From the NCBI GenBank assembly GCA_038060895.1, contig JBBTCT010000024.1:168717-232716 (forward strand): a DNA stretch of 64,000 nucleotides, written 5' to 3'. This DNA comes from Planctomycetota bacterium. GTDB taxonomy: Bacteria; Planctomycetota; MHYJ01; WSZJ01. The position numbers and the translations under genes were made by a program. Shown here piece by piece: positions 14,005 to 39,555 of the stretch. The stretch's first letter is position 1. Each line of letters opens with the position of its first letter. The notes under the pieces were generated by a model. The model had not been told where the DNA came from, did no database searches, and saw only the letters and a program-made list of their open reading frames with translations.

Positions 14005-15098
14005 CGCCCGTGAGGATCATGCACATCGTGGGCGCTCGCCCCAACTTCATGAAGGTCGCGCCGATCATGGCCGCGATGGCGAAGCTCCGGGGGGAGTTCA
14101 GGCAGATTCTCGTCCACACCGGGCAGCACTACGACCGTAACATGTCGGAAGTCTTTTTCGAACAGCTCGGGATGCCGGCGGCCGATGAAACGCTCGGCGT
14201 GGGCTCAGGAACTCACGCGGACCAGACAGCGCGCGTGATGCAGCGGTTCGAGCCGGTTCTCCTCAGGCACAGGCCGGACTGGTTGCTGGTGGTCGGCGAC
14301 GTCAATTCCACGCTCGCCTGCGCCCTCGTCGCCGCGAAGCTCGGCGTGAAGGTGGTGCATGTGGAAGCAGGGCTCCGGTCCGGCGACTGGTCGATGCCCG
14401 AGGAAGTTAACCGTGTCCTTACAGACCGGCTTAGCAACCTGCTGCTGACGCCGTCGATGGACGCCAACCGAAACCTCGCCCACGAGGGAATCGCAAAGTC
14501 GCGCGTCCGACTTGTCGGAAATGTGATGATCGATTCGCTCGTGCGCCTGCTCCCGGCGGCAAGACGGAGCCTCGTGATCAGGAAACTCGGCCTGTCGCGC
14601 GAATCATTCGTTCTCGTGACGCTTCACCGGCCCGACAACGTCGACGAGCCCGCCACGCTCAAGGTGATCCTGTCGGCCCTTGCCGGGATGGCGAAACGGA
14701 TACCGGTTGTCTTCCCCGTTCACCCCAGGACTCGGAAGGTCATCCAGGCGTACCACTTCGAGCGATCCGCCGGCGACGTCCGCCTCCTGGAACCGCTGGG
14801 GTACATGGATTTCCTGGCCCTCACGGATTCCGCGCGTGTCGTCTTGACCGATTCCGGCGGCATCCAGGAGGAGACCAGCTACCTCGGCGTTCCCTGCCTC
14901 ACCGTGCGCCCGAATACCGAGAGACCGGTCACAGTAACCCGAGGCACGAATCGACTCATTCCTGCGAGCGGAATGGCCATAAAAGCGGGGTTCGAGAGGG
15001 TCATGCGCGCCCCTTGCCGGAAGAAATGCACCATTCCCATGTGGGATGGCCAGACGGCCCCGCGCATAGCGAGGACACTGGCGCGGCATGAAAGCTGA
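14001..15098 (+). CDS. wecB: UDP-N-acetylglucosamine 2-epimerase (non-hydrolyzing)
   Basis: GARPNFMK, HTGQHYD, HVEAGLRS, TDSGGIQEE. Confidence 0.93.
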   Translation: MTPVRIMHIVGARPNFMKVAPIMAAMAKLRGEFRQILVHTGQHYDRNMSEVFFEQLGMPAADETLGVGSGTHADQTARVMQRFEPVLLRHRPDWLLVVGDVNSTLACALVAAKLGVKVVHVEAGLRSGDWSMPEEVNRVLTDRLSNLLLTPSMDANRNLAHEGIAKSRVRLVGNVMIDSLVRLLPAARRSLVIRKLGLSRESFVLVTLHRPDNVDEPATLKVILSALAGMAKRIPVVFPVHPRTRKVIQAYHFERSAGDVRLLEPLGYMDFLALTDSARVVLTDSGGIQEETSYLGVPCLTVRPNTERPVTVTRGTNRLIPASGMAIKAGFERVMRAPCRKKCTIPMWDGQTAPRIARTLARHES

Positions 15099-15104
15099 CG
15101 CTTT

Positions 15105-16307
15105 ATGGAACAACCCCCGATCCGCCTCGGAATCTTCGTCACACACCCAATCCAGTACTTCGCTCCCGTCTGGCGGCTCCTGGCAGCAAACGAGAATTTT
15201 CAACTCTCGGTCTATTTCTTCAGTGACCACAGCGTTCGCGGCGGAGTCGACCCGGAGTTCGGCGTCAACGTCGCATGGGACATCCCACTCCTGGACGGCT
15301 ATGCGCACACGTTTCTCGAGCGATCCGCCGATCTCTCGAAACCCTGGTCCGTTGCTCTTCCGAATGCCCGCGAGATCCTGACCAGGGACCGCCTCGACGT
15401 TGTTCTGGTCCACGGCTACACCCACCGTTTCGAGCACAACGTGGTCAAGGCGGCGCGCAAGAGCGGCGTCGCCACGGTCATTCGCGGTGAATTCAGCGAC
15501 TCGAGACCGCCTCGCGGGTGGTCCGCAATCCGAAACCTGATGAGGGACACCTTTCTGAAGCGCTTCTACCGAAAGATCGATTCCTTCTGCTATATGGGAC
15601 AACTCGGGAAACAGCACCTGGAAAGGCTCGGTATTCCGGGGGACCGGATGTTCTTCGCGCCCTACTCAGTCGACACCGCGCTTTTCGAGCGGCAGAAGCA
15701 GCAATTTCAGCGCGTGCAGGTTCGCGCCGACTTGGGAATCCCTGCCGACGCGACCGTGCTTCTCTTCAGCGGCAAGCTTGTGCCCCGCAAGGCTCCCCTG
15801 CTCCTGGTTGAAGCCGTTCGTCGCCTCGGCAACCCGGAAAGTATCTTTCTCGTCCTGGTTGGCGAAGGAGAGCAGCGCGCAGAAGTCGAGGCCGCGGCGC
15901 GCGCGGCGCTGGGCTCTCGCTTTCTCATGCCGGGCTTCGTGAATCAGAGCGGGATCGGCCGGTACTACGCCGCGGCAGACGTGCTTGTTCTGCCGTCCCT
16001 CTTCGACACGTGGGGGCTCGTGGTGAATGAGGCCATGCAGTTCGGGTTGCCAGTAGTCGTGAGCGATCGCGTCGGCTGCGCGCCGGATCTGCTCGTAGAG
16101 GGGACCACCGGATACACTTTCTCGAGCTCAGACGCCGCGTCACTAGCGAAACGTCTGAACTTGCTCATCGAGGATCCGGAGCGAATTCGGTCCATGGGAC
16201 AACACGCCAGCCGGCATGTGGAAAGGTACAGCGCTTCTGCCGCAGCCGCAGGCATTCGCCTGGCGGTGCTTGACGCTTTCCGACACGAGGACACCTCATG
16301 CCGATGA
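15105..16307 (+). CDS. Glycosyltransferase family 4
   Basis: THPIQY, FSGKLVPRK, WGLVVNEAM. Confidence 0.88.
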   Translation: MEQPPIRLGIFVTHPIQYFAPVWRLLAANENFQLSVYFFSDHSVRGGVDPEFGVNVAWDIPLLDGYAHTFLERSADLSKPWSVALPNAREILTRDRLDVVLVHGYTHRFEHNVVKAARKSGVATVIRGEFSDSRPPRGWSAIRNLMRDTFLKRFYRKIDSFCYMGQLGKQHLERLGIPGDRMFFAPYSVDTALFERQKQQFQRVQVRADLGIPADATVLLFSGKLVPRKAPLLLVEAVRRLGNPESIFLVLVGEGEQRAEVEAAARAALGSRFLMPGFVNQSGIGRYYAAADVLVLPSLFDTWGLVVNEAMQFGLPVVVSDRVGCAPDLLVEGTTGYTFSSSDAASLAKRLNLLIEDPERIRSMGQHASRHVERYSASAAAAGIRLAVLDAFRHEDTSCR

Positions 16308-17410
16308 AGCCGGAGAGCGGGCTCGCCGATCTAGGTAAGCTGTCGAATCTGCGCCTTCTCTTCGTAGGAGAGAGCTGGCGCGGATCCTGCGCCCGCAGCC
16401 TCCGGGAAGCGATCTCTCGGCGTCCCGACGTGGTGCTCGACGAGGTGGATGAAGACCATTGGTTCACGAAACCACGCTCGCTCTGGCTTAGAGCGGTCAA
16501 CAGGCTCACGGCAGGTGCATTTCAAGGCGAGTTCCGCGAACAGGTGTTCGCTCGGGTGCGTGAATTCCGGCCTCAAGTGTTCATGACTTACAAGGGTACC
16601 CTGACTGACGCATCCAGCTTGGCGGCGCTCAAGGCTCTCGGGCTGGTAACGGTAAACGTTTATCCTGACTGCTCCCCACACAGTTCGGGTGACTCGCACC
16701 AAAAGGCAGTGGGGGAGTACGACCTGGTAATTTCGACAAAGCCCTTTCACAAGTCGCGCTGGAAAGAAGTATATGGCTACGACAACCGGTGTGAATTCGT
16801 CCCGCAGGGGTACGACCCTTCCCTCCACCTCGTGGAAGGACCCGCCCCTGAGTCGGATTTCGACGTCGTCATGGTTGCAACCTGGCGCGAGGAGTACGCC
16901 AAGCTGATGCAGGACTTCGCTCGGAATCTGGGCATTGACGACCTCAAGGTGGCGATAGGCGGGACCGGCTGGGCGGCCCATTCCGGCTCGTTCCCCCGCC
17001 ACTGGGTGTTCCCTGGCGGACTGCACGGCCCGACCTATGTGGATTGGCTTCGCAAAGGTCGCATCTGCATCGCGCCTCTGACGCGCAGTGTCGTTTTCAA
17101 GGGGCGCCAGCAGCCCGGAGATGAGGACTCCACCCGAACTTACGAATTGGCCGCCGCTCGCTGCTTCTTCATTCACCGGCGAACAGACTACGTAAAGTCC
17201 ATTTTCGACGAGGTCACGGAAGTCCCCATGTTTGGAGACTCGGAGGAACTGGCGCTGCTCGTCAGGCGCTTCCTGGATCAGCCCGCGGAGCGCGCAAAGA
17301 TGGCAGCGGCTGCCCAGCGCCGAGCAGTGCCGGCGTACTCCCTCGACATGCGTGCTGCACAAGTCCTCGACATCCTGAGGAAGTTCCTACTCGGCCAGGC
17401 GTCGCGTTGA
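16298..17410 (+). CDS. Glycosyltransferase (CgeB-like GT-B)
   Basis: PQGYDP, TRTYELAAA, C-terminal GT-B pattern; embedded in operon. Confidence 0.7.
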   Translation: MPMKPESGLADLGKLSNLRLLFVGESWRGSCARSLREAISRRPDVVLDEVDEDHWFTKPRSLWLRAVNRLTAGAFQGEFREQVFARVREFRPQVFMTYKGTLTDASSLAALKALGLVTVNVYPDCSPHSSGDSHQKAVGEYDLVISTKPFHKSRWKEVYGYDNRCEFVPQGYDPSLHLVEGPAPESDFDVVMVATWREEYAKLMQDFARNLGIDDLKVAIGGTGWAAHSGSFPRHWVFPGGLHGPTYVDWLRKGRICIAPLTRSVVFKGRQQPGDEDSTRTYELAAARCFFIHRRTDYVKSIFDEVTEVPMFGDSEELALLVRRFLDQPAERAKMAAAAQRRAVPAYSLDMRAAQVLDILRKFLLGQASR

Positions 17411-23062: not shown

Positions 23063-26000
23063 CTACTTGTTGCGGCACTCGATGCGCCACTGGCCGAGCT
23101 TACTCGGAAGGTCGGTGCCGTCCGAACCTACGATGAAGACCTTTCCGAGGCCCCCGGACGTCGTGGTGACGGCCCAAGCCCTGTCCGGCATGCCAATAAT
23201 GGGAGGGATCGCTGCGCGGTGTTCATAGACGGTAGCGGGGGCGGGATCTGTAAGCACCCAGACGTAAGCACCCGTCGTAGAGTCGTAGATTTTCCACATC
23301 TCAGGAACTCCCGGCACGCCGAACGAGGGATCGCTCTCAATCAAGCCTGGTTGCGCGCCCTCCGTGTTGAACAGCGAATCGAAGGCGAAACTGGACGACT
23401 TCCGCTTCTCGATTCTCCACAGCAGGTCGTCGAGGGGCGCCCTGTTGCTCCCGGCGATAAAGAGCCTGTTTGTATCGAGCACGAGTTGGCCGCATCCAAA
23501 GTCTGCAACCGAGGGCGTGCTCGGAGGCAAGTAAGAACCCAGGAGGTACATCGAAGCGGCACCGACCGGAGACTCGGCGGTCGCCACGTCGACCTTCAGC
23601 AGCGCCCAGTTGTCAAATCCCGGGAAAATAGACGGAGGAACCCAGTACGGGTAGTCGATAGCAGTCCTGTAGGTTGTCAGCGCGTACAGATGAGTCCCAT
23701 CCGTGACGACCGAGTGGACCGAGTCGTCCGAAAAGGTAAAGGTGCCGGTGAAGACGTCGTACAGCGTGATGCCGTTGTCTTTGCGATACGTCCCTTGTCC
23801 GCTGAAGCCGAATCCTGGGTTAACTGACTCTATGTAGACATCGAGGCTGCCATCCGAACAGCGCCGCTTCTGCAACATCGAGTTTCGCGTTGAGCCGGTA
23901 TCGCCGACCGAGTCCTTGAGCCAACCTCCAATGATCAGGAAGTCTTCTGATCCATCGGCGATCGTGACACACGTGGCGGCTGCAGGGCAATCTGTCGTAG
24001 GCAACGAATGGGGTTCGATGTCATTCCAAAAGCTGCTCTGGGTGACGACCCAGGATGATGCGCCCGTCGTCGCGTCCAGCTTCTCTACCCGTATGTTGGA
24101 CATGCCTGCGATGTCATCATCCCCTACGGCGTAGAGGAAGCCATCGGTGTGGAGGGCGATGTCCCCTGCCTTCCCGTTTGCGGTCGTGGTCGTGTACACG
24201 CCGTCTACGTCGAAGGCAGTATCGAGCACGCCGGTGGTAAGAACGCGCTTTTCGACGCGCCAATCATAGGATCCCGCAGTTGTCTCCTGGCTGCCAAACA
24301 GAAACATGTGCGTGGCGTTCACCAGGATCTTTCGTGGAATCATCTCGATTGCGCCTGCCGGATTAATTTTGAGGAGCCCGGTCCCGTCCGGCCAGGATCC
24401 GACCAACGAGCCGTCTGACAGCATCCTCCGCTCAACCCGCCAAGTGTTGTTAACCCCTGTCCCCATGCCTCCTTCGTAGCCGAAGACGTACAGGAAGCTA
24501 CCCTCGGTGGCGACAGAGCGAGCTTCGTCCTTCGTGCTGCTACCCGGTTCGCTCTGGATCACGCCGCCGGTGCCGAAGCCGGTCACCAGCAGGCCGCCGG
24601 TGCTGTCCGAGAAGATCGTGTTGTTCGACAAGGTGATCGATCCGCTGGTGGCGATGACGCGCCCCTGCACGACCGAGTCGGAGCCGAGCACGATGGCCGT
24701 GGGCGACGCAGCCGTGGCCAGAATCGTTCCCCTGAAATTAGTGCTGGCCCCAAGGCTGAATGTGTCGGAGATCCAGATGACGTTGTCGGCGTTGGCGCCG
24801 CGTTCGTACTTGAACTGAAAAACTCCCAGGGCGCTGACGATGTCCAGCGCTCCGGAGTGCCTGAAGATCCAGACGCTGCCGGGGTCGTTTCGACCGTCCA
24901 AGGTGATGGGTCCGTCCACCTTCGGATCTCCCGTGAACGCAAATGAGTCGATCAGGTAGACGCCGCCGGGCAACCGCTTGCCCAGCAAGGTGTACCCCTT
25001 CAGGCTGTAGTCCGCGTCGCGCGCGAGAGCATCTACCTGGGCCAGCAAAGCGGCGGCAACAGCGTCGTCGGGGGGGTCCGTCGCCGTGCCGCTGTCCGGG
25101 TAGAAGGTGCCGGGTGCCTCCACGACGAACGGTGGCGTACCGGGATCCATGATCCCGGTAGCGACGCCAGCGCTTCCCTTGATGAGCGTATCGCCGGTGT
25201 TCGTCATCGAGTCGTAGGCGAGCGCCGCGAAATTCGCGGGGGCGTCTGGATCAGAGGCGGAACCGAGCGCCAGCGTGCCGGTTTCACCGATGGAGATCGA
25301 CCCGTAGACGTTCGTGGCGTAGTACCACCAGCCGTAGTAGAGCGACGCGACGCGCCCGGTCACATTGCTGCCGGCTCCGATCTGGACGTCGCCGTTCACG
25401 AGCACGGTGCCGATAAAATTGGCGTAGCCCGTCACGTCAGGATCTTTCCAGGGAGGAGACTTCTCGTCATCTCCGATGAATGCGCCCGGCATGTTGTCGT
25501 AGGTGTAGCCGTAGGGGCCAAGATCCGGTCCTGTGGACCGGTAGTCTCCTGACGGGATCGCGACTCCCACCTGCCACCATACGTTTTCGGGAAGCGCTCC
25601 CCCGGTCATCACAACCTTGGATTTGCCCCTGGCGTAAAGGTTACCGGGAATCTGGAAAATCCAGGTGTCCGTGGAGCTGCCGCTCAAGGTCAGAGTTCCG
25701 CCACCCAGGGTGACATCTTTGTGGATGTGCCCTGTCACGGGTTCGACGATCGTGGAGTCGAATTTATATATACCTGCGGTCAGGGTTTCCCCGGAAAGGT
25801 CCAGGTCGGTACGGGTCACCGTCGGCGTCCGACCGGCGAGGTCGGTGTAACAAAGGGTGGCGGCCAGCATGGCAGCGGCGTAACCGGTGGGGTCGCCCGA
25901 GGGAAACGCCGTTGAACCGGAATAGGAGTAGTGTTCATCGCCGAAAATCGTGGCTTCCTTGAAGGTCGGCCACACATAGCCGCCGAAACCATCAGAGGTG

Positions 26001-26341
26001 TAGCCATCAGTCATCACCGACGAGTAGTCCTCGTTGTCGTAGTCGCCCCAGTTCGCGCCCACGTCGCCCCAGACCACCGTGTCCTTCTTGTGGTAGAGGT
26101 AGTAGTAGGCCAGCGCCGCGTAGAAGTAGGCGACGCCGAGGTCCGGTTTCGGGGGAGCGGGAGGTGGAGGGATGAGGACCGGGTCTACCGCGGACTTGCT
26201 GCCTGACCCGGAAGAGCCGCTCCCGGAAGAAGTGTTTCCGGATGAGGATGATCCGCCGTCGGAGCTCCTCTTGCACCCAGCGAAAACCAGCGAGACCAGC
26301 GCGAGGACGAGGACCGGCAGCACGTACTTTTTGGAAGTCAC
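23063..26341 (-). CDS. Large lipoprotein with two DUF3494 (ice-binding-like) domains and C-terminal beta-propeller-like repeats
   Basis: Lipobox FAGC; LSGETLTAGIY..WIFQI..GGALPENVWWQVG and PGGVY..ITLDG..VWIFR..GANADNVIW..FRGTILA..GRVIA; WRVERR/WRVEKR/WRIEKR repeats. Confidence 0.8.
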   Translation of the reverse strand: MTSKKYVLPVLVLALVSLVFAGCKRSSDGGSSSSGNTSSGSGSSGSGSKSAVDPVLIPPPPAPPKPDLGVAYFYAALAYYYLYHKKDTVVWGDVGANWGDYDNEDYSSVMTDGYTSDGFGGYVWPTFKEATIFGDEHYSYSGSTAFPSGDPTGYAAAMLAATLCYTDLAGRTPTVTRTDLDLSGETLTAGIYKFDSTIVEPVTGHIHKDVTLGGGTLTLSGSSTDTWIFQIPGNLYARGKSKVVMTGGALPENVWWQVGVAIPSGDYRSTGPDLGPYGYTYDNMPGAFIGDDEKSPPWKDPDVTGYANFIGTVLVNGDVQIGAGSNVTGRVASLYYGWWYYATNVYGSISIGETGTLALGSASDPDAPANFAALAYDSMTNTGDTLIKGSAGVATGIMDPGTPPFVVEAPGTFYPDSGTATDPPDDAVAAALLAQVDALARDADYSLKGYTLLGKRLPGGVYLIDSFAFTGDPKVDGPITLDGRNDPGSVWIFRHSGALDIVSALGVFQFKYERGANADNVIWISDTFSLGASTNFRGTILATAASPTAIVLGSDSVVQGRVIATSGSITLSNNTIFSDSTGGLLVTGFGTGGVIQSEPGSSTKDEARSVATEGSFLYVFGYEGGMGTGVNNTWRVERRMLSDGSLVGSWPDGTGLLKINPAGAIEMIPRKILVNATHMFLFGSQETTAGSYDWRVEKRVLTTGVLDTAFDVDGVYTTTTANGKAGDIALHTDGFLYAVGDDDIAGMSNIRVEKLDATTGASSWVVTQSSFWNDIEPHSLPTTDCPAAATCVTIADGSEDFLIIGGWLKDSVGDTGSTRNSMLQKRRCSDGSLDVYIESVNPGFGFSGQGTYRKDNGITLYDVFTGTFTFSDDSVHSVVTDGTHLYALTTYRTAIDYPYWVPPSIFPGFDNWALLKVDVATAESPVGAASMYLLGSYLPPSTPSVADFGCGQLVLDTNRLFIAGSNRAPLDDLLWRIEKRKSSSFAFDSLFNTEGAQPGLIESDPSFGVPGVPEMWKIYDSTTGAYVWVLTDPAPATVYEHRAAIPPIIGMPDRAWAVTTTSGGLGKVFIVGSDGTDLPSKLGQWRIECRNK

Positions 26342-26443: not shown

Positions 26444-27358
26444 TTAAGAAAGTTCAGATATTTTTTTTTGCACTTCGGCCAGATCCTCGACCCTCCGGGG
26501 ATGGGATAACGCCAACGGCGGGAAGGCGGCGGAGAGGTCGCCAAGATAGCGGAATTCGGCGCAAGCGCGCCCGCGGTCCGTCGGGTCCAGCCGGAAGGCC
26601 TGCCTCACCAGCGCCAGCATCGCCTCGCCGCCGGAAGCGCGCTGGATCCACGGACGCCCGGGACGGTGGGGGGCGAGGAAGAAGAGTCGCCAAAGAGGCG
26701 CCGGAGAGCTGCTCCAGCGGGAGCCGGTGGGAACCAGCCGTTGTTTTGTTTGCGAATCCGGTACCTGCCCTCCCCCGAACACCGGTGCGGATGAGGGCCA
26801 CAACCGATGGATCGGGTAAGCCGGGACGATGCGCGAGTTTTCGTCGAGCAGAACCCCATCATCCGACAACAGCCGCGCCCCCGACGCGCAAAAACTCGCC
26901 GCCAGCGTCGACTTTCCGCTTCCGCTCTCCCCGATGAACGCGATCGCGCCCCGATCGGTCTCCACGGCGCTCGCGTGCAGCACGGTCCGACCGGATGCGG
27001 AGAGAGCGCGCGGCAGGACATCGTCGAGAAACAGGTGGCGAACGGACTCGACGGACGACCCGGGCGCCGGGAGTGCCTCGACATGGAGTTCTCCGCGCGC
27101 GACGAGAAAGTCGGCGAGGCCGTGGAAGCGAAGAAGCATGCGGTCAGCGGCGGGTCCGATCGAGAGACAACTCGTGCCGTCATTGCCCTGCACTTCGAAC
27201 ACCCAGCCTTTGTGCGGCGTTGGTGGCGCGGACGGGCTAAGCCGAAATGTCGCAACGGTTCGACGGGTCGCCGGAGAACCTTCCTCATCCCAGCCTGGCA
27301 GATCGGGGAATTCGATGTCGGTGTCGAGGCGCAGCCCGAAGACGGTGTAGTGCCGCAT
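26444..27358 (-). CDS. HPr kinase-like lasso peptide kinase
   Basis: LHASAV, GESGSGKST Walker A, LLSDD; ATG at 27358. Confidence 0.85.
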   Translation of the reverse strand: MRHYTVFGLRLDTDIEFPDLPGWDEEGSPATRRTVATFRLSPSAPPTPHKGWVFEVQGNDGTSCLSIGPAADRMLLRFHGLADFLVARGELHVEALPAPGSSVESVRHLFLDDVLPRALSASGRTVLHASAVETDRGAIAFIGESGSGKSTLAASFCASGARLLSDDGVLLDENSRIVPAYPIHRLWPSSAPVFGGGQVPDSQTKQRLVPTGSRWSSSPAPLWRLFFLAPHRPGRPWIQRASGGEAMLALVRQAFRLDPTDRGRACAEFRYLGDLSAAFPPLALSHPRRVEDLAEVQKKISELS

Positions 27359-27371
27359 TCCGCCCGGCAGG

Positions 27372-27662
27372 TTACTCGCTCGTGACGTCAATGAGGCCTC
27401 GCTGCGCAAGCGCTTCCACGAACTCCCGCATGTCCTTCCGGATCGTTTCAGGGGGCGCTTCGAATTCCTCAGCGAGGCGGTCGCACGCTGCGGCGATCGA
27501 GGGAGAGGTGGAAAGGCACGCCCAGAAAGCGGTGCCAACGTCATCAAGGCCGTAGTACGACTCGTTCTTCAGATTCAGGATGACGGACTCGCCGTCCACG
27601 GCCCGAATCAGCGTTTCGGGCGAAACCACGGCGCGCCTCGCAAAGGAAAATTCCGGGTGCAT
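27372..27662 (-). CDS. PqqD-family RiPP recognition element (lasso B1)
   Basis: VDGESVILNL..YYGLDDVGTAFW..L.EEF...DMREFVEAL..RGLI; ATG at 27662 with GGAG RBS. Confidence 0.92.
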   Translation of the reverse strand: MHPEFSFARRAVVSPETLIRAVDGESVILNLKNESYYGLDDVGTAFWACLSTSPSIAAACDRLAEEFEAPPETIRKDMREFVEALAQRGLIDVTSE

Positions 27663-27869: not shown

Positions 27870-29666
27870 TCACGGTTCCGTGATACCAGCCATCGCGCGA
27901 CTGTACCAGATTTCGATGCCGCCGATCATCCAGAGTGGCCACATCAATCGGCTTTGGTCCATCCGGCCGGCGGCCTCTTCCCTGAGGAATTCGCGGTAAA
28001 GGGAGGCGGCGGGGCCCGTGTTGGTCCAGCCCCGGGCAGCGGTTGTCAGCGACTGAAAGCTCCGCTCGCCGCCCAGCGCCCGGAATGCTTCCGCAAACAG
28101 GTGCGAGAAATCCGCTTTGGTCCTGCGGTCGCGGACGGCCGGCGGAAGCAAGTCGCGGAGTCCGCCGCGGAGGACGAACTTTGTGGCCGCTCCGCGGCGG
28201 AGCTGCTCCCGCGGAACGGTCAGCGCGAACTCAATCAACCGGCGGTCATAAAACGGCATTCGCAGCTCGAGCCCGTGCCAGGCCATGTCGCGTTCGTCGA
28301 TTTCCAGCATGTGCTGTCCCCAGCCCGTTCCGTCGATGGCGAAGCGCCGCGCAGCCTCGGCGCCCGGGACGAGGGGGCGATGGCGATCCTTTGCGTGGAT
28401 GCGGTCGACAAGAGAGATGCGGCGGGCGAATTCCGCGGAGATCCAGGCGGGCGCCTTTCGTTTTCCCATCACTTTCGCAACGGTCTCGAACGCCGGATGA
28501 GGCAGGACAGCGCGAAGAGCCGCGCGCAGGACCCCGCCACGTCGCGGCCCTGGTCCCATCAGCCATTCGTCGGAGCCGATGCCGGTCAGCACCGCCCGGA
28601 ATCCGCGCTTTCGCGCGAGCGGGCGGATCGGGAGGGCGACCGCCGAGTTCGGATATCCGGGAAAGTCGAGCGTCCTTGCCGCGGACGCGGCGTAGATCCC
28701 CGGGTCCGCTGCGGCGGCCTCCTCAAAATTTGCCTGGAGCCCCCACATAGACACCACTTCATCAATGTAGGCCCGCTCGTCGCACGGACGCCCCGGAAAC
28801 GAGAGCGAGAACGTCTCGAACCCCTTCCCCTCTGCCGCGCCCTCCCTGAACAGGGCCTGCGCCATCCCGACGACCGAGCTGGAGTCCAGTCCGCCGCTGA
28901 GGTCCGCACAGACCGGCGTATTGCTGCGCAGGCGGCAAAGCACGGCGGCCCGAAAGAGTTCGCGGAATCGGTTTCCATACTCAAGATCCGAAGCGAGACC
29001 AGAGACGTCGGAGACACTCCGCGGGGCGTACTGCCGCGCACGGACTCCCGCCGCGTCCGCCACGAGCACGTGAGATGGCGGCAACCGCAGCACGCCTTTC
29101 CAGACGGTCTCTTCTCGGTGGGTGACGGCGTTGGCGAGGAACTCGCCGATCACTCCTTCGTTTGGCTCGCGGGGGAGGCCGGCGTCGCCGAAAAGGGCGC
29201 CGGGCTCCGAGGCGAAGACAAGGCGGCCGGCGTGGACCGCGTACGCGAGCGGACGCGCTCCGATCCAGTCTCGGGCGCAGAGGAGCCGGCGCCTCGCTGC
29301 GTCCCAGTACGCGAAGGCAAAGTCGCCAAGCAGCCGTCCCGGGGCGTCTTCACCCCATTTCTCGCAGGCCAGCAACGCGAGCTCGGCGTCGCCGTCGCCG
29401 GCCGGCGCAAGCGCTTTGCGCAGTTCGTCGCGATTGTCCAGGCGTCCGTGAAAGACGATGCCGAGCTTTCCCTTCACGAACGGCTGGTGTTCGTGCACGG
29501 CCTCGGGAGTCGTGTGCATCGCCCGGAAGCCGAGAGCGACGGAGCCGTCGATCCAGGTCGCGCAGCCGTCCGGGCCGCGGTGCGCGAGACGCGTGAGAAT
29601 CGATCCGAGAGGCTCCGGCCCCGCCGGCCTGCCGTCGAAATAAAAAACTCCGGCTAGCCCGCTCAC
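27870..29666 (-). CDS. Lasso peptide cyclase (AsnB-like, no N-terminal Cys)
   Basis: Starts MSGLAG, HGRLDNR, GDFAFA, DLSGGLDSS, RMPFYDRRL; adjacent to precursor and RRE. Confidence 0.9.
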   Translation of the reverse strand: MSGLAGVFYFDGRPAGPEPLGSILTRLAHRGPDGCATWIDGSVALGFRAMHTTPEAVHEHQPFVKGKLGIVFHGRLDNRDELRKALAPAGDGDAELALLACEKWGEDAPGRLLGDFAFAYWDAARRRLLCARDWIGARPLAYAVHAGRLVFASEPGALFGDAGLPREPNEGVIGEFLANAVTHREETVWKGVLRLPPSHVLVADAAGVRARQYAPRSVSDVSGLASDLEYGNRFRELFRAAVLCRLRSNTPVCADLSGGLDSSSVVGMAQALFREGAAEGKGFETFSLSFPGRPCDERAYIDEVVSMWGLQANFEEAAAADPGIYAASAARTLDFPGYPNSAVALPIRPLARKRGFRAVLTGIGSDEWLMGPGPRRGGVLRAALRAVLPHPAFETVAKVMGKRKAPAWISAEFARRISLVDRIHAKDRHRPLVPGAEAARRFAIDGTGWGQHMLEIDERDMAWHGLELRMPFYDRRLIEFALTVPREQLRRGAATKFVLRGGLRDLLPPAVRDRRTKADFSHLFAEAFRALGGERSFQSLTTAARGWTNTGPAASLYREFLREEAAGRMDQSRLMWPLWMIGGIEIWYSRAMAGITEP

Positions 29667-31285
29667 CTCCGTTCCTTCTCAATCTTCTCGATCTGGGTCA
29701 TGTAGCGCAGCGCCCGGGCTTCCGCTGCATCGATCGCCAGGGCCTGCGCGAAGCACTCCTTCGCGGGGGTCAACTGTCGATTCATGAAGTGAAACTCCCC
29801 CTTCATTCCCCAGGCCGTCGCGTTTCCCGCGTCAACCTGGACCAGCCGCTCGAAGCACTCCAACGCGAGCGCCCCCTGGCTATCCATGGCGGCGGTGACC
29901 GCGAGGTTGGCCAGCACCGCGGCTTCGTCGGGCCGCAGGGCCCTTGCGCGACCGAACATGTCGATCGCCGCCTTGATGTCTCCCTTTTGACGAAGCAGCG
30001 CCCCGAGGTTGAACCATCCGTTCCAGTGCTCGGGGTCCAGCTCGACCGAACGGCGCAGCCGCGTCAGCCCTTCATCGACGCGCCCCAGCGAGGCGAGCGC
30101 GAGCCCCGCGTGGTAGTTGGCCATCGCCGAATCCGGATCCGACAGGAGCGCCTTCTCAAACCACTTGAGAGCTTCGTCGTCCCTGCCCAGCTGGTGCGCG
30201 CGGAAGCCGCGCAGGTCGAATTCGTGCGCACCGGTTCCCTCGTCGCCGAAAGTCTCGAGGAGCGCCGCCATTTCCGCTTCTGAAACCGCGCGGCGGAAGA
30301 CGCGGCGAAGGGCTCCTTGGGCGTCGAAGACGAAGGTGGAGGGGAGCGGGGCGTCGCCGCCCGGGCCGAAGAAGGACCTGAGGAGAGGTTCGTCGGCGAG
30401 GAACTGCGGGTAGGAGACGCCGGCGGCCTGCACGGCGGCCCGGACCGCGTCGAGGTCCTTTGACTCGACGCTCACGCCCGCAAACGTGGCGCGGTCGCGG
30501 AACTTCCCCGCGAGCGCGACGAGCGCCGGCATTTCCTCCTTGCAAGGCGCGCATGTGGGCGACCAGAAGTTGATGACCGCAGGCGTGCCTTTGGTTGCAA
30601 GCGCCGCTTCCCCGCCCTCGAGCCGACGCGCGGTGGCGTCGAACGAGAACACCGGGCGCGAACGCGGCGGCCCGGACGTCCATCGGGGCAGCTCGCGCGC
30701 TTCGAATCCCGGGCGGCCGTGACGGATCGTGACGAGACGGTCTGCGGGAACGCGTTCGACGGTCTGGACATCTCCGCCGGGCCAGGTCACCGTCACCCGT
30801 TCGGCCAGGGCGGCGTCGCCGAGACCGAAATGCAGGTCGAACGGCACCTGCGTCTGGAAACCGTCGGTGAGGCGCGTGTAGTCCTGCTGCGTGACGCCGC
30901 CGGCCTCGACTTTCACGAGCGCGCCAAGCGCGTCGGCAAGCCCGCGCTGCCCTTCAAGTCGAAGACGCAGAAATCGTCGCGCCGGAGAACTGTTTTCGAC
31001 GACGCGCAGTCCCTGGAGCGAGAAGCACAGGAGGTCGAGGTCGCCGTCGCCATCGACGTCGGCAGGCGCGGCGGCGCGGCCGTCGTCGTCGAAGTCGAGA
31101 CCGCAGACGTAGGCGGCGTTGGGATAGGTCTGCGAAGGGCCGTCCGCGTTGAAGAAAAGGAAATCCCGCTCGTACCCGCTCCAGGAGCCGCGGAACGTGG
31201 GGTCAACCCTGGCTTCGTAGTTGGGCTGTACTTTCTTCGACTCAAGGGCGCGTGCGTCGGCGGCGACCTGCCGCCAGAAGTGCGT
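29663..31285 (-). CDS. C-terminal part of CRTAC-like protein: FG-GAP repeat + ASPIC/UnbV + TlpA-like thioredoxin + TPR (in frame with upstream ORF across a UGA)
   Basis: Open frame from 31285: FWRQV..SWSGYERD..DVDGDGDLD, LHFGLG..VTWPGG, NFWSPTCAPC, TPR helices. Confidence 0.82.
   Translation of the reverse strand, partial: THFWRQVAADARALESKKVQPNYEARVDPTFRGSWSGYERDFLFFNADGPSQTYPNAAYVCGLDFDDDGRAAAPADVDGDGDLDLLCFSLQGLRVVENSSPARRFLRLRLEGQRGLADALGALVKVEAGGVTQQDYTRLTDGFQTQVPFDLHFGLGDAALAERVTVTWPGGDVQTVERVPADRLVTIRHGRPGFEARELPRWTSGPPRSRPVFSFDATARRLEGGEAALATKGTPAVINFWSPTCAPCKEEMPALVALAGKFRDRATFAGVSVESKDLDAVRAAVQAAGVSYPQFLADEPLLRSFFGPGGDAPLPSTFVFDAQGALRRVFRRAVSEAEMAALLETFGDEGTGAHEFDLRGFRAHQLGRDDEALKWFEKALLSDPDSAMANYHAGLALASLGRVDEGLTRLRRSVELDPEHWNGWFNLGALLRQKGDIKAAIDMFGRARALRPDEAAVLANLAVTAAMDSQGALALECFERLVQVDAGNATAWGMKGEFHFMNRQLTPAKECFAQALAIDAAEARALRYMTQIEKIEKERR
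31259..31275 (-). promoter_or_regulatory. Candidate bacterial SECIS hairpin
   Basis: GGCGGC-AGGUC-GCCGCC, stem begins 10 nt after the in-frame UGA at 31288-31286. Confidence 0.5.
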
Positions 31286-33043
31286 TCAGAAGTCCGGGGC
31301 GTTCGCGTCCGAATTCGTCGTGAACCCGTTGGCAACCCAGATCTCGCGATCGCCGTCGTTGTCGATATCCAGGAACAGGCAGGCCCACGCCCAGTCGGCC
31401 CAGTTCAGGCCGCGGGCCACGGACGTCTCGCGCCATTCCCCCGATTTCGGGTCGCGCTCGTAGAACTGGTTTCCCTGGGCGAGCAGGAGCCCCAGCCGGC
31501 GCATCTCTGGCCCGAGGTTATCCGCGAGAAGAAACACGCGATTACCCGCATGGCTGTACATGTTCGAGAGGTACATCCCCCACGTCCCGTCGTTCTCCCA
31601 GTCCGCGATCGTCACGCCCATCGTGTAGTTCGTGTCGGCGTTGAAAATGTGCGTCTTCGCGTCGGCAAAACGCCCCTTGCCGTCGTTCTGCCACAGGTGA
31701 TTCGGTCCGAAGTCGTTTCCCTCGAACAGGTCGAGGTCGCCGTCGAAATCGAAGTCCCACCATTTCGCGACATAGGAGTACTGCGTTCCGGTGATGCCGC
31801 GCGCGTCCGACTCCTCCGTAAACCGCAGGCCGCCCTGGTTGATGAACAGGTAGTTGTCCGCTCCGTCGTAGGCCACGACGCGGTTGAAGGCGTCGTTCTT
31901 CGATCCGCGATTCTTATAGCAGCAGAAGAACAGGTCGATGTCGCCGTCCCGGTCGAAGTCCGCCGGCACGATCCCCTGCACCGACACGCCCACGGTCCCC
32001 GGCGGCACTGCAAACTCCGTCGCGCGCGTCTCCCAGCCATCTCCCTTCCGCACGTGGATCCGCAAGTTCGCCTTGTCCCGCTTCTCCCCGCTGACGTCGC
32101 CGCTCACGAGCTCGTCCACCCCGTCGCCGTCCAGGTCGAGCGCCACGTACGACCACGCCACATCGTCCGGCTTGAGGGCCGGCCCCTGCCCGCGCACGAA
32201 TCCGCCCTTTCCGTCGTTCAGGAACAGCGCGAGCTCGCCGCCGCGCACCCAGGCGAGCACGTCCGGAAACTCGTCCCGGTTCCAGTCCGACACCACCATT
32301 CCTCCCGTGCTCGTGATCCCGCGGTCGTCGATCATCGACCGGCGAAGCTCCCGGTTGGCAGCGGACTCATTGAAGTGCAGACCGGTTTCATCCGTGATGT
32401 CGATCCACGGCGCGCGCCGCGCATCCAGGCGCGTCCCCTCGACCCATTCCAGCCGCTCGACCTGCCAGGTTTTTTCCGCCGTGGCCACCCACCGGCTGCG
32501 CACCGTTCCGGAGAGATCCGCCCGCATCCCGTCGGTCTTGCGCCCGGCGAGCTGGAAGTGCAGCACGACGTAGGCCGATCGAAGGCCGGGATCGAGCAGG
32601 AACTCAAAGGGACGCCACGTCGTTCGCTCGACCGCGACCCAGTCTTTCAAGTGCTCGCGAATCGTCGCGACGAATGCCGCGGCATCTCGCTCGGGAAGTC
32701 CTTCAGCTCCGTACTCCCGGATTCCCATCCAGGCGTCGGGAACCTCCTTGCCATCCTGGGGCGCCGGAAATTTGCCGCGAAACCCCGGAGTGAGAGCGGC
32801 CTTTGCCTTCTCCCAGTCCATCTCGCGAAGGCCCTTCATGAAACTCCGCTTGATCGAACCGTTGGCCGTCTCGTAGGTCGACTCGGAAAGTTCGACGTCC
32901 TTGACAAAGTCCGCCGGGCGCACGAACGGCCGTTCTCCTTCGAGAATCGGCACGCGTTTCTTGAGGACCACCGCGGTAATCAGCGCTGCAATCCCCACTA
33001 CTGCCGCGATGACCCCAGCGCCGCGGGCGCTTCGTCGTGTCAT
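31286..33043 (-). CDS. N-terminal part of membrane-anchored CRTAC1/FG-GAP repeat protein
   Basis: N-terminal TM segment; DWNRD, DLDGDG, DFDRDGDIDL, DFDFDGDLDL, YLSNMYS, WAW..DIDNDG repeats; ends at TGA. Confidence 0.85.
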   Translation of the reverse strand: MTRRSARGAGVIAAVVGIAALITAVVLKKRVPILEGERPFVRPADFVKDVELSESTYETANGSIKRSFMKGLREMDWEKAKAALTPGFRGKFPAPQDGKEVPDAWMGIREYGAEGLPERDAAAFVATIREHLKDWVAVERTTWRPFEFLLDPGLRSAYVVLHFQLAGRKTDGMRADLSGTVRSRWVATAEKTWQVERLEWVEGTRLDARRAPWIDITDETGLHFNESAANRELRRSMIDDRGITSTGGMVVSDWNRDEFPDVLAWVRGGELALFLNDGKGGFVRGQGPALKPDDVAWSYVALDLDGDGVDELVSGDVSGEKRDKANLRIHVRKGDGWETRATEFAVPPGTVGVSVQGIVPADFDRDGDIDLFFCCYKNRGSKNDAFNRVVAYDGADNYLFINQGGLRFTEESDARGITGTQYSYVAKWWDFDFDGDLDLFEGNDFGPNHLWQNDGKGRFADAKTHIFNADTNYTMGVTIADWENDGTWGMYLSNMYSHAGNRVFLLADNLGPEMRRLGLLLAQGNQFYERDPKSGEWRETSVARGLNWADWAWACLFLDIDNDGDREIWVANGFTTNSDANAPDF

Positions 33044-33052
33044 TCGCGCATG

Positions 33053-33355
33053 CTAGCCCTGACGGAAAGTCGCTTCAAGCGGAGTCGGCGCCGGCGCGAG
33101 CGTCTTGCGCAGTTCCTCGCGGTTGTCGAGGCGGCCGTGGAAGACGATCGCGAGGTCTCCCTTCACGAACGGCTGGCGCTCGGCGGCGGCCTCGGGGGTG
33201 GTGTGCATCGCCTGGAAGCCGAGGGCGACGGGGCCCGCGGACCAGCGGGCGCTTCCGTCCGGCCCGCGGTGGGCGACGCGGGCGAGGACGGCGTCGAGCG
33301 GCTGGGGGGCGGCGGGCTGGCCGTCGAAGTGGAAGACGCCGGCGATGCCGCTCAT
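33053..33355 (-). pseudogene. Truncated duplicate of the lasso cyclase N-terminus
   Basis: About 88 aa align with 29666 gene (MSGIAGVF..HRGPDG..MHTTPEA..QPFVKG..FHGRLDNR..LAPA), then similarity stops. Confidence 0.8.
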
Positions 33356-33460
33356 GGGCGGATTCTACAACCGCGAGGAGATTGCGGCGCGAGTGGGGAG
33401 AGACGGGATGACGGTGGACTCGGTCGAAGACCGATATCAAGAATTTGCATCGCAGCGCGC

Positions 33461-33489
33461 TTGACAGTACGGTTGCCGTGAGATATGTT
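33461..33489 (+). promoter_or_regulatory. sigma70 promoter of the deaminase gene
   Basis: TTGACA-N17-TATGTT. Confidence 0.6.
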
Positions 33490-37143: not shown

Positions 37144-39555
37144 TCACGGCCCGGCCGCTTCATCCCGTAACCGCGCCGCCTCGGCATCCCCCGGCACGGA
37201 CGCGAGGTAACCGCGAAGCACCTCGACCGCTTCGGCGCGTCTCCCCGCGCCGATCAACGCCCGCGCGAGGATGATCACCGCCCCCCGCCGGCCCGGCTGG
37301 GACGCCAGCGCGGCCCGCGCGTCGTCGATCGCGGGCTGCCAGAGCTTTTCATTGAGGTAGAGGTTCGCGCGGCGCGTCAGCAGGAGCGGATCGCCGGGGT
37401 GCGAGGCCAGCGCGTCCGTCACCGCCTGCGCGGCCGCCAGCCGGTCGCCCTGCGCTTCCAGGAAATCCGCGACGAGGCACGGGCCCTCCATGTTCGCGGG
37501 GTCCAGCCTGGCCGCGATCCGCGCGTTCACGAGCGCGGCGTCCCACGCTTCGAGCTTGCCCCACGCCCGCGCGGCGGCGGCATGCGCGGCCGCGTCCGAC
37601 GTCACCGCGAGCCGGGCCTCCCGCACCGTCGCCTCCAGCCCCCACTGCCCCGCTTCCCCGAACGCCTCCGCCAGCGCGTCGTACCCCGGCGCGTTTTCGC
37701 GCGACGCCGGCACCAGCCGCCAGAACACCGCCGCCGCTTCCTCCCACCGCCCGCGCCGCGCCAGGAACACCGCCAGCCTGCCGCCCGCCGCGGGCGTCGG
37801 CATCAGCGCTTCCCACTCCACCACCGGTCCGTCGATCCCCAGCCGCTCCAGCGCTTCCTCCACCGTCCCCGGCTCCCCCTCGAACGCCCGCCGCAGACAC
37901 ACCCCCGCCGGCCCGCGCTTGCCCTCTATCCAGAGCCAGATCCCCGCTTCGATTTGCGTCTCCGGATTCGCGGGCCACAGCGAAGCGGCGGTCTCGAAGC
38001 GTTTGGCGGCGAGGTCGAAGTCGTCGCGGCGTTCGGCGGCGCGGGCGAGGTACCAGGCGGCGTCGGCGTCGCAGGGGGAGAGGCGGAGGATTTTGTGAAG
38101 GGCGAGCTCGGCGGCGGCGGGGTCGAGTTTCGAAGCGGCGCGGGCCTTGTCTTCGGGGTCGAGGCCTGCGAAGGCGAGGGTGGCGGCGAGGGCAAGCGTG
38201 ACGAGGGCGGCGGCGGCCCAGGCGGCGCGCGGGAAGGGGCAGGAGGCGCTGGAGAACGCGGGGGCGAGGCCGAGCAGCACGGCGAACAGGAGGCCGACGC
38301 CCGTGATGCGCAGGTCGAAGTCCACGAGCGCGTGCACGGCGGCGGCCAGCACGGCGGCGACGGCGGCGCTCGCGGCCGCGCGCTCCGCGCCGTCCAGCGT
38401 CGGCAGGCCGCGCACCGCGCGCACGCCCCAGAATGCGAGCCCGGCGACGAGGAGAAGCGCCCACGCGGCGCCTCCTTCGAAGAGGGCGTTCACGTACTCG
38501 CTGTGGGCGTGCCGGAACTGGCCGGGGAGTGACGGCGGCTGGAACGGGCGGAAGGCGCGCGGGTAAGAGCCGAGGCCGAAGCCGAGGACCGGCTGGCGCG
38601 CGGCGGCGGAGAGCGTGGCCTTCCAGCAGACGACGCGCGTGTCCTGGGTGAGGTCGCTGCCTTCCATGCTTTCGAACCGCTCGATCAGCGGCTCGGCGTT
38701 GGCGGCCCAGATCGTCACGCCCGCGGCGAGCGCGAGCGCGGCGCCGCCGGCGACCGCCGCGCCGCGCGTCCGCCGCTGCCACACGAACGCGAGCGCCACT
38801 ACGCCGGCGACGGCCGCCAGCGCACCGCCGCGCGACCGCGACAGGACGATCGCGGCCGCGAAGAGCGCGGCCGCCAGCGCCCACGACAGCCCCGATTCCA
38901 GGAGCGCGATTTTCCCCGCGTCGCGCCGCCGGGACGTCCACCGCCCCCACGCCGCCCCGGCCGCGAGCGCGACCCCCATCGCCATCAGCCCCGCGAAGTT
39001 GTTCCGGTTCACCAGCGTCCCGCTCGCGCTCTCCAGGTCGAAGCGCTTTCCGAAAAACGGCAGGGTCTCGAAGCGAAATCCGGTCTGGGCGACCGCGTAG
39101 GTGGCCTGGAGGGCGAGGACGACGAGGATGGAGTTCAGCGCCAGGCTGCGTCGCAGGCCGGCCTGCGTAAGCCGGAGGGTCAGGAGTGCAGCGAGCGCGT
39201 AGGCGGCGACCTGCGCGGCCTGCCGGACCGTGAGGAAGGCGTCGGCGGTCCCGGGGCCCGCGCCCGCGGCGCCGTGCGAGGCGCGCAGGGCGGAGGTCCA
39301 GGGGAACAGAAAGCCCAGGCCGGGCGCAAGCTGGAGGACGAGGAGGAGTGCGACGCCGGCGAGGAACGCGACGGCCGGGCGCGAGAGGAGCAACGGACCG
39401 GGGAGCAGGAACATCGCGGCGACGTTCAGGCACGCCATCCAGGCGGCGAGCGTCGCCACCGCTGCGGGGGAGACGCCGCCGTAGACGGCCAGCGAGCCGG
39501 CCCAGCCGAGCAGGCCGGCCAGCCAAAGGGTTGAGACGCGCGTCGAGACCGACAT
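37144..39555 (-). CDS. O-antigen ligase/polymerase (Wzy_C) family protein with C-terminal TPRs
   Basis: GTLVNRNNFAG, SRSRGG, P.LGFGLG, HAHSEY; many TM segments then TPR helices. Confidence 0.85.
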   Translation of the reverse strand: MSVSTRVSTLWLAGLLGWAGSLAVYGGVSPAAVATLAAWMACLNVAAMFLLPGPLLLSRPAVAFLAGVALLLVLQLAPGLGFLFPWTSALRASHGAAGAGPGTADAFLTVRQAAQVAAYALAALLTLRLTQAGLRRSLALNSILVVLALQATYAVAQTGFRFETLPFFGKRFDLESASGTLVNRNNFAGLMAMGVALAAGAAWGRWTSRRRDAGKIALLESGLSWALAAALFAAAIVLSRSRGGALAAVAGVVALAFVWQRRTRGAAVAGGAALALAAGVTIWAANAEPLIERFESMEGSDLTQDTRVVCWKATLSAAARQPVLGFGLGSYPRAFRPFQPPSLPGQFRHAHSEYVNALFEGGAAWALLLVAGLAFWGVRAVRGLPTLDGAERAAASAAVAAVLAAAVHALVDFDLRITGVGLLFAVLLGLAPAFSSASCPFPRAAWAAAALVTLALAATLAFAGLDPEDKARAASKLDPAAAELALHKILRLSPCDADAAWYLARAAERRDDFDLAAKRFETAASLWPANPETQIEAGIWLWIEGKRGPAGVCLRRAFEGEPGTVEEALERLGIDGPVVEWEALMPTPAAGGRLAVFLARRGRWEEAAAVFWRLVPASRENAPGYDALAEAFGEAGQWGLEATVREARLAVTSDAAAHAAAARAWGKLEAWDAALVNARIAARLDPANMEGPCLVADFLEAQGDRLAAAQAVTDALASHPGDPLLLTRRANLYLNEKLWQPAIDDARAALASQPGRRGAVIILARALIGAGRRAEAVEVLRGYLASVPGDAEAARLRDEAAGP

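Follow-up and report, generated by a model that had tools for sequence, protein, structure and literature searches.

In bacterial SelB-dependent selenoprotein genes such as E. coli fdhF, an in-frame UGA is followed by a stem-loop within the open reading frame (ORF), the selenocysteine insertion sequence (SECIS), and the sel machinery is present. The apical loop of fdhF reads GGUC. Proteins of the CRTAC1/ASPIC/UnbV family consist of an FG-GAP_3 beta-propeller followed by an UnbV_ASPIC domain; we know of no biochemical function assigned to animal CRTAC1. The ResA/TlpA family of thiol reductases is extracytoplasmic. Neisseria PilB is a Trx-MsrA-MsrB fusion in which the reductase domain recycles the neighbouring catalytic domain. 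The locus described here resembles each of these systems and differs from each of them. It lies in a stretch of 64,000 nucleotides from a Planctomycetota bacterium (assembly GCA_038060895.1, contig JBBTCT010000024.1, positions 168,717 to 232,716), called the window below and used for all positions unless a contig is named. The element in question is a minus-strand gene of 1126 codons with one internal TGA. The probability that this UGA is decoded as selenocysteine (Sec) is put at roughly 90%.

As in fdhF, the UGA is followed by a stem-loop and the sel genes are present; the GGUC loop of fdhF stands at nearly the same distance as the loop of the window element. In contrast to fdhF-type selenoproteins there is no formate dehydrogenase and no thioredoxin fold at the Sec site, and unlike the archetypal element the hairpin has no evident bulged U and no Rfam match. 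The succession of FG-GAP_3 propeller and UnbV_ASPIC is common to the window protein and the CRTAC1/ASPIC/UnbV family, and murine CRTAC1 was the best Foldseek match among solved structures (9etn_A, E 5.1e-23, TM-score 0.68 on target). A profile search of solved structures also recovered 9etn_A (6.1e-31) in a list dominated by tetratricopeptide repeat (TPR) proteins. To the family plan the window protein adds Sec, a ResA/TlpA-like domain and TPRs, whereas the nearest annotated full-length bacterial homologs carry neither Sec nor the CxxC motif, with Gln or Asp at the Sec position. The C-terminal thioredoxin-like domain superposes on ResA, TlpA, DsbF and StoA (Foldseek, TM-score on target 0.75-0.82) and shares W-x-x-x-C-x-x-C with the ResA/TlpA/CcmG reductases. 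As in fusions where a reductase recycles a neighbour domain, the CxxC shares the fate of the presumed catalytic residue, being retained or lost with it, but the partner here is a Sec beta-propeller and not Msr, Prx or a client of cytochrome maturation.

The main features of the gene are as follows.

29663..33043, minus strand: candidate selenoprotein gene, 1126 codons plus a terminal TGA stop (29665..29663), a single frame with one internal stop

31286..31288, minus strand: in-frame TGA, codon 586, predicted to be read as selenocysteine (translation, DNA and homolog column)

31259..31275, minus strand: SECIS-type hairpin with a 6-bp stem GGCGGC/GCCGCC and a 5-nt loop AGGUC (DNA and homologs)

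Translation of 33043..29663 on the minus strand gave 1126 residues with codon 586 as the sole internal stop, in the context A-P-D-F-U-T-H-F-W-R-Q-V. The ORF list has two minus-strand frames in common register, 31286..33043 (585 aa) and 29663..30916 (417 aa), and the 123 codons separating them contain no stop. Gene callers would report the gene as these two ORFs. An initial annotation of the window had described the two ORFs, the 123 open codons, a 1126-aa readthrough product with the UGA at codon 586, the hairpin GGCGGC-AGGUC-GCCGCC ten nt past the UGA and a propeller-ASPIC-thioredoxin-TPR architecture with the motif WSPTCAPC. Retranslation, the DNA itself, the Pfam results and the positions of Cys831 and Cys834 agree with it throughout. 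A 920-codon ORF is also present antisense to the gene (30719-33481, plus strand) and most likely reflects no more than high G+C content. One RNA run (X20) was considered as evidence of expression and rejected: it yielded a lone 152-nt contig with an exact match to 30900-30987, the UGA and most of the gene were uncovered, and DNA carry-over is possible.

The TGA is conserved among homologs. A six-frame search of 41 related genomes (E <= 1e-50) returned 58 matches, 55 of them with exactly one TGA; two of the other three end ahead of the column and a single stop-free form was found (G008:C104:11721-14813). All 30 fetched loci, from 13 related genomes, have TGA in the window's column at identities of 29.5-85% measured over a 95-residue query around the TGA. 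The motif of the family at the site is D-[FYWLT]-U-[TSVAP]-x-[FYL]-W-[RK], and the protein is conserved on both sides of the UGA across homologs. The window's own genome has seven paralogs, all with TGA (7/7): the window gene, five genes on contig C36 and one on C30. The six others each have the TGA at the column and a CxxC downstream. The C36 paralogs are located at 18412-52082 (L132, L220, L136, L034 and L044), four of them nearly back to back, and the C30 paralog at 14499-16910 (L221). Tandem arrays of paralogs are also present in related genomes.

A pattern scan of species-representative genomes, based on a 13-sequence alignment, gave at least 80 loci, the closest relatives lying outside the matches listed. 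Among the matches listed, 34 align across the column and 13 of these have TGA. The record titles of the 13 loci name Planctomycetota/Planctomycetaceae, Vicinamibacterales/Vicinamibacteraceae, Verrucomicrobiia, Akkermansiaceae, Ca. Multivorans and Myxococcales. TGA was also found at the column in five more paralogs from the genus and in three metagenome contigs, giving 53 TGA places in total (30+13+8+2), five of which are repeats or doubtful. A phylum-wide search with a Gln-form protein (E <= 1e-80) matched 6 of 301 genomes, with one non-Sec match (G109). In that comparison L137 (G002:C253:34307-37597) showed two TGA codons with the Gln-form query and one with the window protein; the second is probably the terminal stop of a neighbour, caught at the edge of the match. 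One locus from a Planctomycetota metagenome-assembled genome (MAG), L078, has an aligned TGA, four stops in its frame and no more than 201 residues after the site, and is likely a pseudogene or a misalignment.

Where Sec is absent, it is seldom replaced by Cys. In 101 full-length annotated homologs the residues at the column include Gln (53), Asp (15), Glu (9), Leu (6), Ser (5) and Cys (3). The nearest of the annotated full-length bacterial homologs are at most 48-50% identical and are single chains with Gln or Asp for Sec. Besides the 3/101, Cys was found at two genome loci and three metagenome loci, all of them distant and UnbV/'enediyne E4'-like. The Cys forms (L062, L064, L144, L145, L162, P0077 and P0096) often have a second Cys five residues on (C-x-x-x-W-C), and a disulfide version of the Sec site is possible for these C-x4-C forms. 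According to PMC13188914, Cys homologs exist for most selenoproteins, and a search strategy relying on Cys/Sec pairs is described there. Gln, Asp or Glu in place of Cys is atypical for selenoprotein homologs. Since the close homologs carry these residues, searches built on Cys/Sec pairs would miss the family. The initial annotation had held that homologs with neither TGA nor Cys at the site would speak against Sec; TGA was found, and that yardstick is misleading if annotated proteins alone are checked.

The hairpin is positioned as expected for a bacterial SECIS (bSECIS). A spacer of 10 nt (31285..31276) separates the TGA from the 5' arm GGCGGC (31275..31270), which is followed by the loop AGGTC (31269..31265) and the 3' arm GCCGCC (31264..31259), all within the codons for W-R-Q-V-A-A. 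The consensus bSECIS, as given in PMC13188914, has a loop of 3-9 nt, a stem of 4-16 bp, a G in loop positions 1-2, a spacing of 16-37 nt and a minimum free energy (MFE) of <= -7.5. The window element lies inside these bounds with a loop of 5 nt, a stem of 6 bp, 16 nt from UGA to loop and an MFE of -15.4; loop position 2 is G, followed by G/U.

Comparison with homologs carries the case for the hairpin. In the main clade (28 sequences) 98.2% of the 168 stem cells are paired. One stem pair is GC in 14, AU in 9 and GU in 5 sequences with no mismatch, and the observed covariation score was reached in 0/500 shuffles. A second clade of nine sequences from other phyla has 96.3% of cells paired and two compensatory pairs, with the 3' arm shifted by two bases so that different residues are encoded. 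More distant genes have different stems in the same place, with the G-rich loops GGU, GUUC, GGUC and CGGGU. Codon choice is the sharpest hairpin signal. Within the stem, Arg is encoded by CGG in 19, by CGA in 9 and by CGC in none of the 28 genes, against a background of 50.9% CGC, 32.6% CGG and 4.5% CGA at Arg codons in the rest of the same genes. CGA was seen only opposite the partner codon GUC (9/14). The partner codon itself is GCC in 14/14 cases of Ala (background 36%) and GTC in 14/14 cases of Val (background 48%). The non-Sec homologs L131 (Glu) and L140 (Gln) also encode W-R-Q, with CGC for Arg and no hairpin; they are two controls only, too few for statistics, L140 being the one close non-Sec locus among the matches listed from a metagenome scan with Gln-form and Asp-form proteins.

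The machinery for Sec insertion is encoded in the same genome. SelA (541 bits), selB (310.7 bits, or 344.3 with a neighbouring match in the same frame), selD (364 bits) and tRNA-Sec (71.7 bits against a gathering score of 47) all scored over curated cut-offs. SelA was over its cut-off in 36/41 related genomes, including 13/13 with the TGA form. The selD gene (G000:C2:48628-49548, minus strand) has an in-frame TGA of its own and is itself a selenoprotein gene (...SSCAG-U-ASKLGPADL). Its SECIS reads GGGUCC-GGC-GGACCU, with an 11-nt spacer, a 6-bp stem and the loop GGC, a geometry like that of the window element.

The alternative that survives best is that the UGA is recoded in another way. Readthrough by a near-cognate tRNA (Trp, Cys or Arg) or by a suppressor would give the same full-length chain, with the hairpin only slowing termination. 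Gln, Asp, Glu and Ser are tolerated at the site in non-Sec homologs, so that the chemistry there might be inessential, and support for Sec itself comes from comparison. Such recoding is nevertheless improbable, given a hairpin with SECIS geometry and a GGU-type loop like that of the genome's own selD, the presence of selA in every TGA-form genome checked, a UGA that is invariant over deep divergence as its flanks vary, and a CxxC redox partner that tends to accompany Sec, as described below.

With a true and conserved stop, the locus would instead encode two products, a propeller fragment of 585 residues and a thioredoxin-TPR protein of 417 residues with its own start at GTG 30916. The predicted domains and structure of the readthrough protein bear on this.

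32963..33019, minus strand: hydrophobic segment near the N-terminus, following MTRRSARG and spanning about residues 9-27, a probable signal anchor or export signal (translation, by eye)

30728..32305, minus strand: FG-GAP beta-propeller and UnbV/ASPIC, about residues 247-772, CRTAC1-like and holding the putative Sec site (Pfam, AlphaFold2 and Foldseek)

30266..30625, minus strand: ResA/TlpA-type thioredoxin-like domain, residues 807-926 (Pfam and Foldseek)

30553..30542, minus strand: CxxC (C831-A-P-C834) of the thioredoxin-like domain (motif WSPTCAPC)

29696..30196, minus strand: C-terminal TPR repeats, residues 950-1116 (Pfam TPR_2, TPR_1, TPR_11 and others)

Matches over Pfam cut-offs on the readthrough protein were FG-GAP_3 (2.4e-29, three stretches), UnbV_ASPIC (2.7e-17, residues 705-772) and, at residues 807-926, AhpC-TSA, Redoxin and Thioredoxin. 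An AlphaFold2 model of residues 215-935, built from a 43-row alignment of 20 readthrough segments and 23 database proteins, had a predicted local distance difference test score of 92.5 and a predicted template modelling score of 0.93. Helix 586-602 of the model begins with Sec586 and is preceded by strand 567-572 and a loop. The N-terminal position of a helix is typical for a redox-active Cys or Sec. NCBIfam equivalog cut-offs were not reached by the thioredoxin-like domain (ResA 38.8 vs 170, TlpA 34.2 vs 230, StoA 24.8 vs 210, DsbE 20.6 vs 123), which thus has the ResA/TlpA fold and motif and is not an equivalog. The protein is probably exported or extracytoplasmic, judging from the N-terminal hydrophobic segment, the lipobox-like L-A-A-C-G consensus at the N-terminus of non-Sec homologs and the location of the ResA/TlpA family.

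Public gene calls look like the products of termination. A comparison of the N-terminal ORF with 5.8 billion proteins gave matches in 469 clusters (E <= 1e-20). All but one of the 120 relatives listed (119) end in ...PDF, PDY, PDW, PDL or LDY, and therefore these database relatives are gene calls cut at the UGA. Those that have a name are called 'VCBS repeat-containing protein', 'putative FG-GAP repeat' or 'ASPIC/UnbV domain-containing', and the closest named entries are 86-87% identical and come from Planctomycetota MAGs. TGA is also the normal terminal stop in 26/39 of the family genes, from which it follows that TGA is not reassigned genome-wide. Termination at codon 586 is still very improbable. 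The open stretch of 123 codons that joins the two ORFs is conserved as protein (SWSGYERD, DVDGDGDLD) and forms part of the propeller/ASPIC fold in a confident single-chain model. A frame of 721 codons, 371 before and 349 after the site, is free of stops except for the TGA in 42/43 loci, L078 being the exception, and non-Sec homologs of full length consist of a single chain.

That the gene is a pseudogene with a fresh nonsense mutation, or that a sequencing or assembly error put a wrong base in the codon, as a lone TGA in a long gene of a 47-contig, 86.5% complete assembly might suggest when viewed by itself, is extremely improbable with TGA recurring at the places counted above (in the seven own paralogs and in other phyla) in otherwise intact frames, and with 31286-31288 unchanged in assembled contigs, not raw reads, of two other studies (X3 record 7 and X4 record 14, 0 other letters) and likewise spanned without difference by a diverged relative (X5 record 22). 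The sole variant near the TGA in the contigs of other studies was 31290 A>T, which changes Phe585 to Tyr as in paralogs.

If codon 586 is read as Sec, as preferred here, Sec co-occurs with a CxxC motif in this family. The CxxC is found 239-285 residues past Sec in most Sec forms, in the context W-x-x-x-C-x-x-C. A tree of 161 sequences contained 46 with Sec and CxxC, 5 with Sec and without CxxC, 4 with CxxC and without Sec and 106 with neither; CxxC is thus present in 46/51 Sec forms vs 4/110 non-Sec forms. Gln forms that still match AhpC-TSA or Redoxin have lost the cysteines. On this tree, made with FastTree only, the fewest changes were 9 for Sec and 11 for CxxC. The apparent link between Sec and CxxC is strong descriptively and not proven statistically. 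Four loci (L022, L023, L025 and L040) keep the UGA and the hairpin and have lost the CxxC (e.g. SFWPKSSAPS). In the ortholog group L022, L023 and L025 (G004, G003 and G001) Sec is kept, the CxxC motif is degenerate and CxxC-bearing paralogs adjoin. Such neighbouring paralogs might act in trans for the Sec forms that lack the motif.

The initial annotation had proposed a candidate selenoprotein whose Sec site is paired with its own thioredoxin, and had suggested a tally of homologs at D-F-*-T-H-F-W-R-Q, a check of hairpin covariation, a search for sel genes in the genome and an inspection of read support for the TGA. The proposal has gained from each: TGA at 30/30 loci and at loci of other phyla, compensatory pairs in two clades together with the codon bias, the presence of selA, selB, selD and tRNA-Sec, contigs from independent samples that keep the TGA, and the co-occurrence of Sec with CxxC all point in its direction.

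Several results weigh against Sec at this site or its coupling to CxxC. The hairpin of the single sequence is not above chance: a 40-nt segment starting at the UGA has a folding energy of -15.4 kcal/mol compared to -13.35 ± 2.52 in dinucleotide shuffles (z -0.81), and 40/200 shuffles fold at least as well, which bears out an earlier caveat that a GC stem could be due to chance. An Rfam scan of 31100-31400 at E <= 10 found no family, with Gl_U6 and mir-571 at chance level only. Covariation in the main clade is confined to one stem pair, and owing to a GCC repeat 92.9% of cells remain paired when the 3' arm is slid by -3. The own-genome paralog L136 (G000:C36:42299-45514) has CGC in the 5' arm and a C-U stem mismatch, the only such case among 37 main-clade hairpins inspected. 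The closest non-Sec homologs carry Gln, Asp or Glu and seldom Cys. Five Sec forms are without CxxC, and a test of independent pairs had four supported pairs, of which 2-4 agree and none is opposite (median p 0.25). The case for Sec is wholly comparative, and the TGA with its hairpin is far beyond chance only when homologs are compared.

Full-text literature searches found no CRTAC1/ASPIC/UnbV, FG-GAP or VCBS member described as a selenoprotein. FG-GAP, ASPIC, VCBS, CRTAC, propeller and the Pfam numbers are absent from the accessible parts of the main texts of PMC13188914, PMC13326102, PMC12013277 and PMC9312934, the first of which terms its own list the most comprehensive inventory. The main text of PMC4807772 (2016, PLoS One) contains no occurrence of ASPIC, FG-GAP or UnbV and discusses only fdhA and fmdB. 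No NCBIfam model was over its cut-off for the window protein. This is apparently a widespread selenoprotein family that is mis-split by gene callers and uncatalogued in the main texts of searchable catalogues.

The genes around the candidate selenoprotein gene are as follows.

27870..29666, minus strand: asparagine synthase/glutamine amidotransferase (GATase) gene, overlapping the last 4 nt of the selenoprotein gene with its start

26444-27547: unassigned 367-aa ORF past the asparagine synthase gene

23063-26341: 1092-aa Ice_binding-like protein

37144-39555, minus strand: 803-aa protein with Wzy_C (O-antigen ligase) and C-terminal TPRs

A deaminase gene lies upstream of the selenoprotein gene on the opposite strand. 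The asparagine synthase and selenoprotein genes overlap at the stop and may be translationally coupled. The Wzy_C protein and the asparagine synthase hint at a cell-envelope or exopolysaccharide context.

In the proposed mechanism UGA 586 would be decoded by the genome's own SelA, SelB, SelD and tRNA-Sec, directed by the in-ORF SECIS hairpin that starts 11 nt after the UGA. Sec586 would then act as a redox-active nucleophile on an extracytoplasmic substrate and would be regenerated after each turnover by the fused ResA/TlpA-type domain through Cys831/Cys834. The CxxC domain would in turn be reduced by a membrane thiol-reductant system, and the TPR tail may recruit partners. The Sec-CxxC relay is considered somewhat likely. 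The recoding mechanism is standard and the protein context is unusual in its propeller scaffold, its Gln/Asp/Glu homologs and its fused reductase. More tentatively, and with doubt slightly prevailing, the gene could represent a new class of extracytoplasmic selenoenzyme in which a helix-capping Sec on a CRTAC1-type propeller is served by a CxxC domain, and in which loss of Sec leads to Gln, Asp or Glu together with loss of the CxxC.

Hundreds of public entries appear to be truncated at the UGA (469 clusters, with 119/120 of those listed and inspected), so domain architectures and selenoproteome counts would be wrong for this family in Planctomycetota, Acidobacteriota and Verrucomicrobiota. A selenoenzyme in which Sec sits on an apparently exported beta-propeller and is coupled to a reductase domain of the same chain would be unusual. 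The Sec position offers a concrete candidate for the active site of CRTAC1/ASPIC/UnbV proteins, which are poorly understood. If the new selenoenzyme class is real, Sec-to-Cys is not the usual escape route in the family, and the Sec position would mark the active site in all of its members, animal CRTAC1 among them. As one genome holds seven copies, the supply of selenium may be important to whatever these proteins do at the cell surface.

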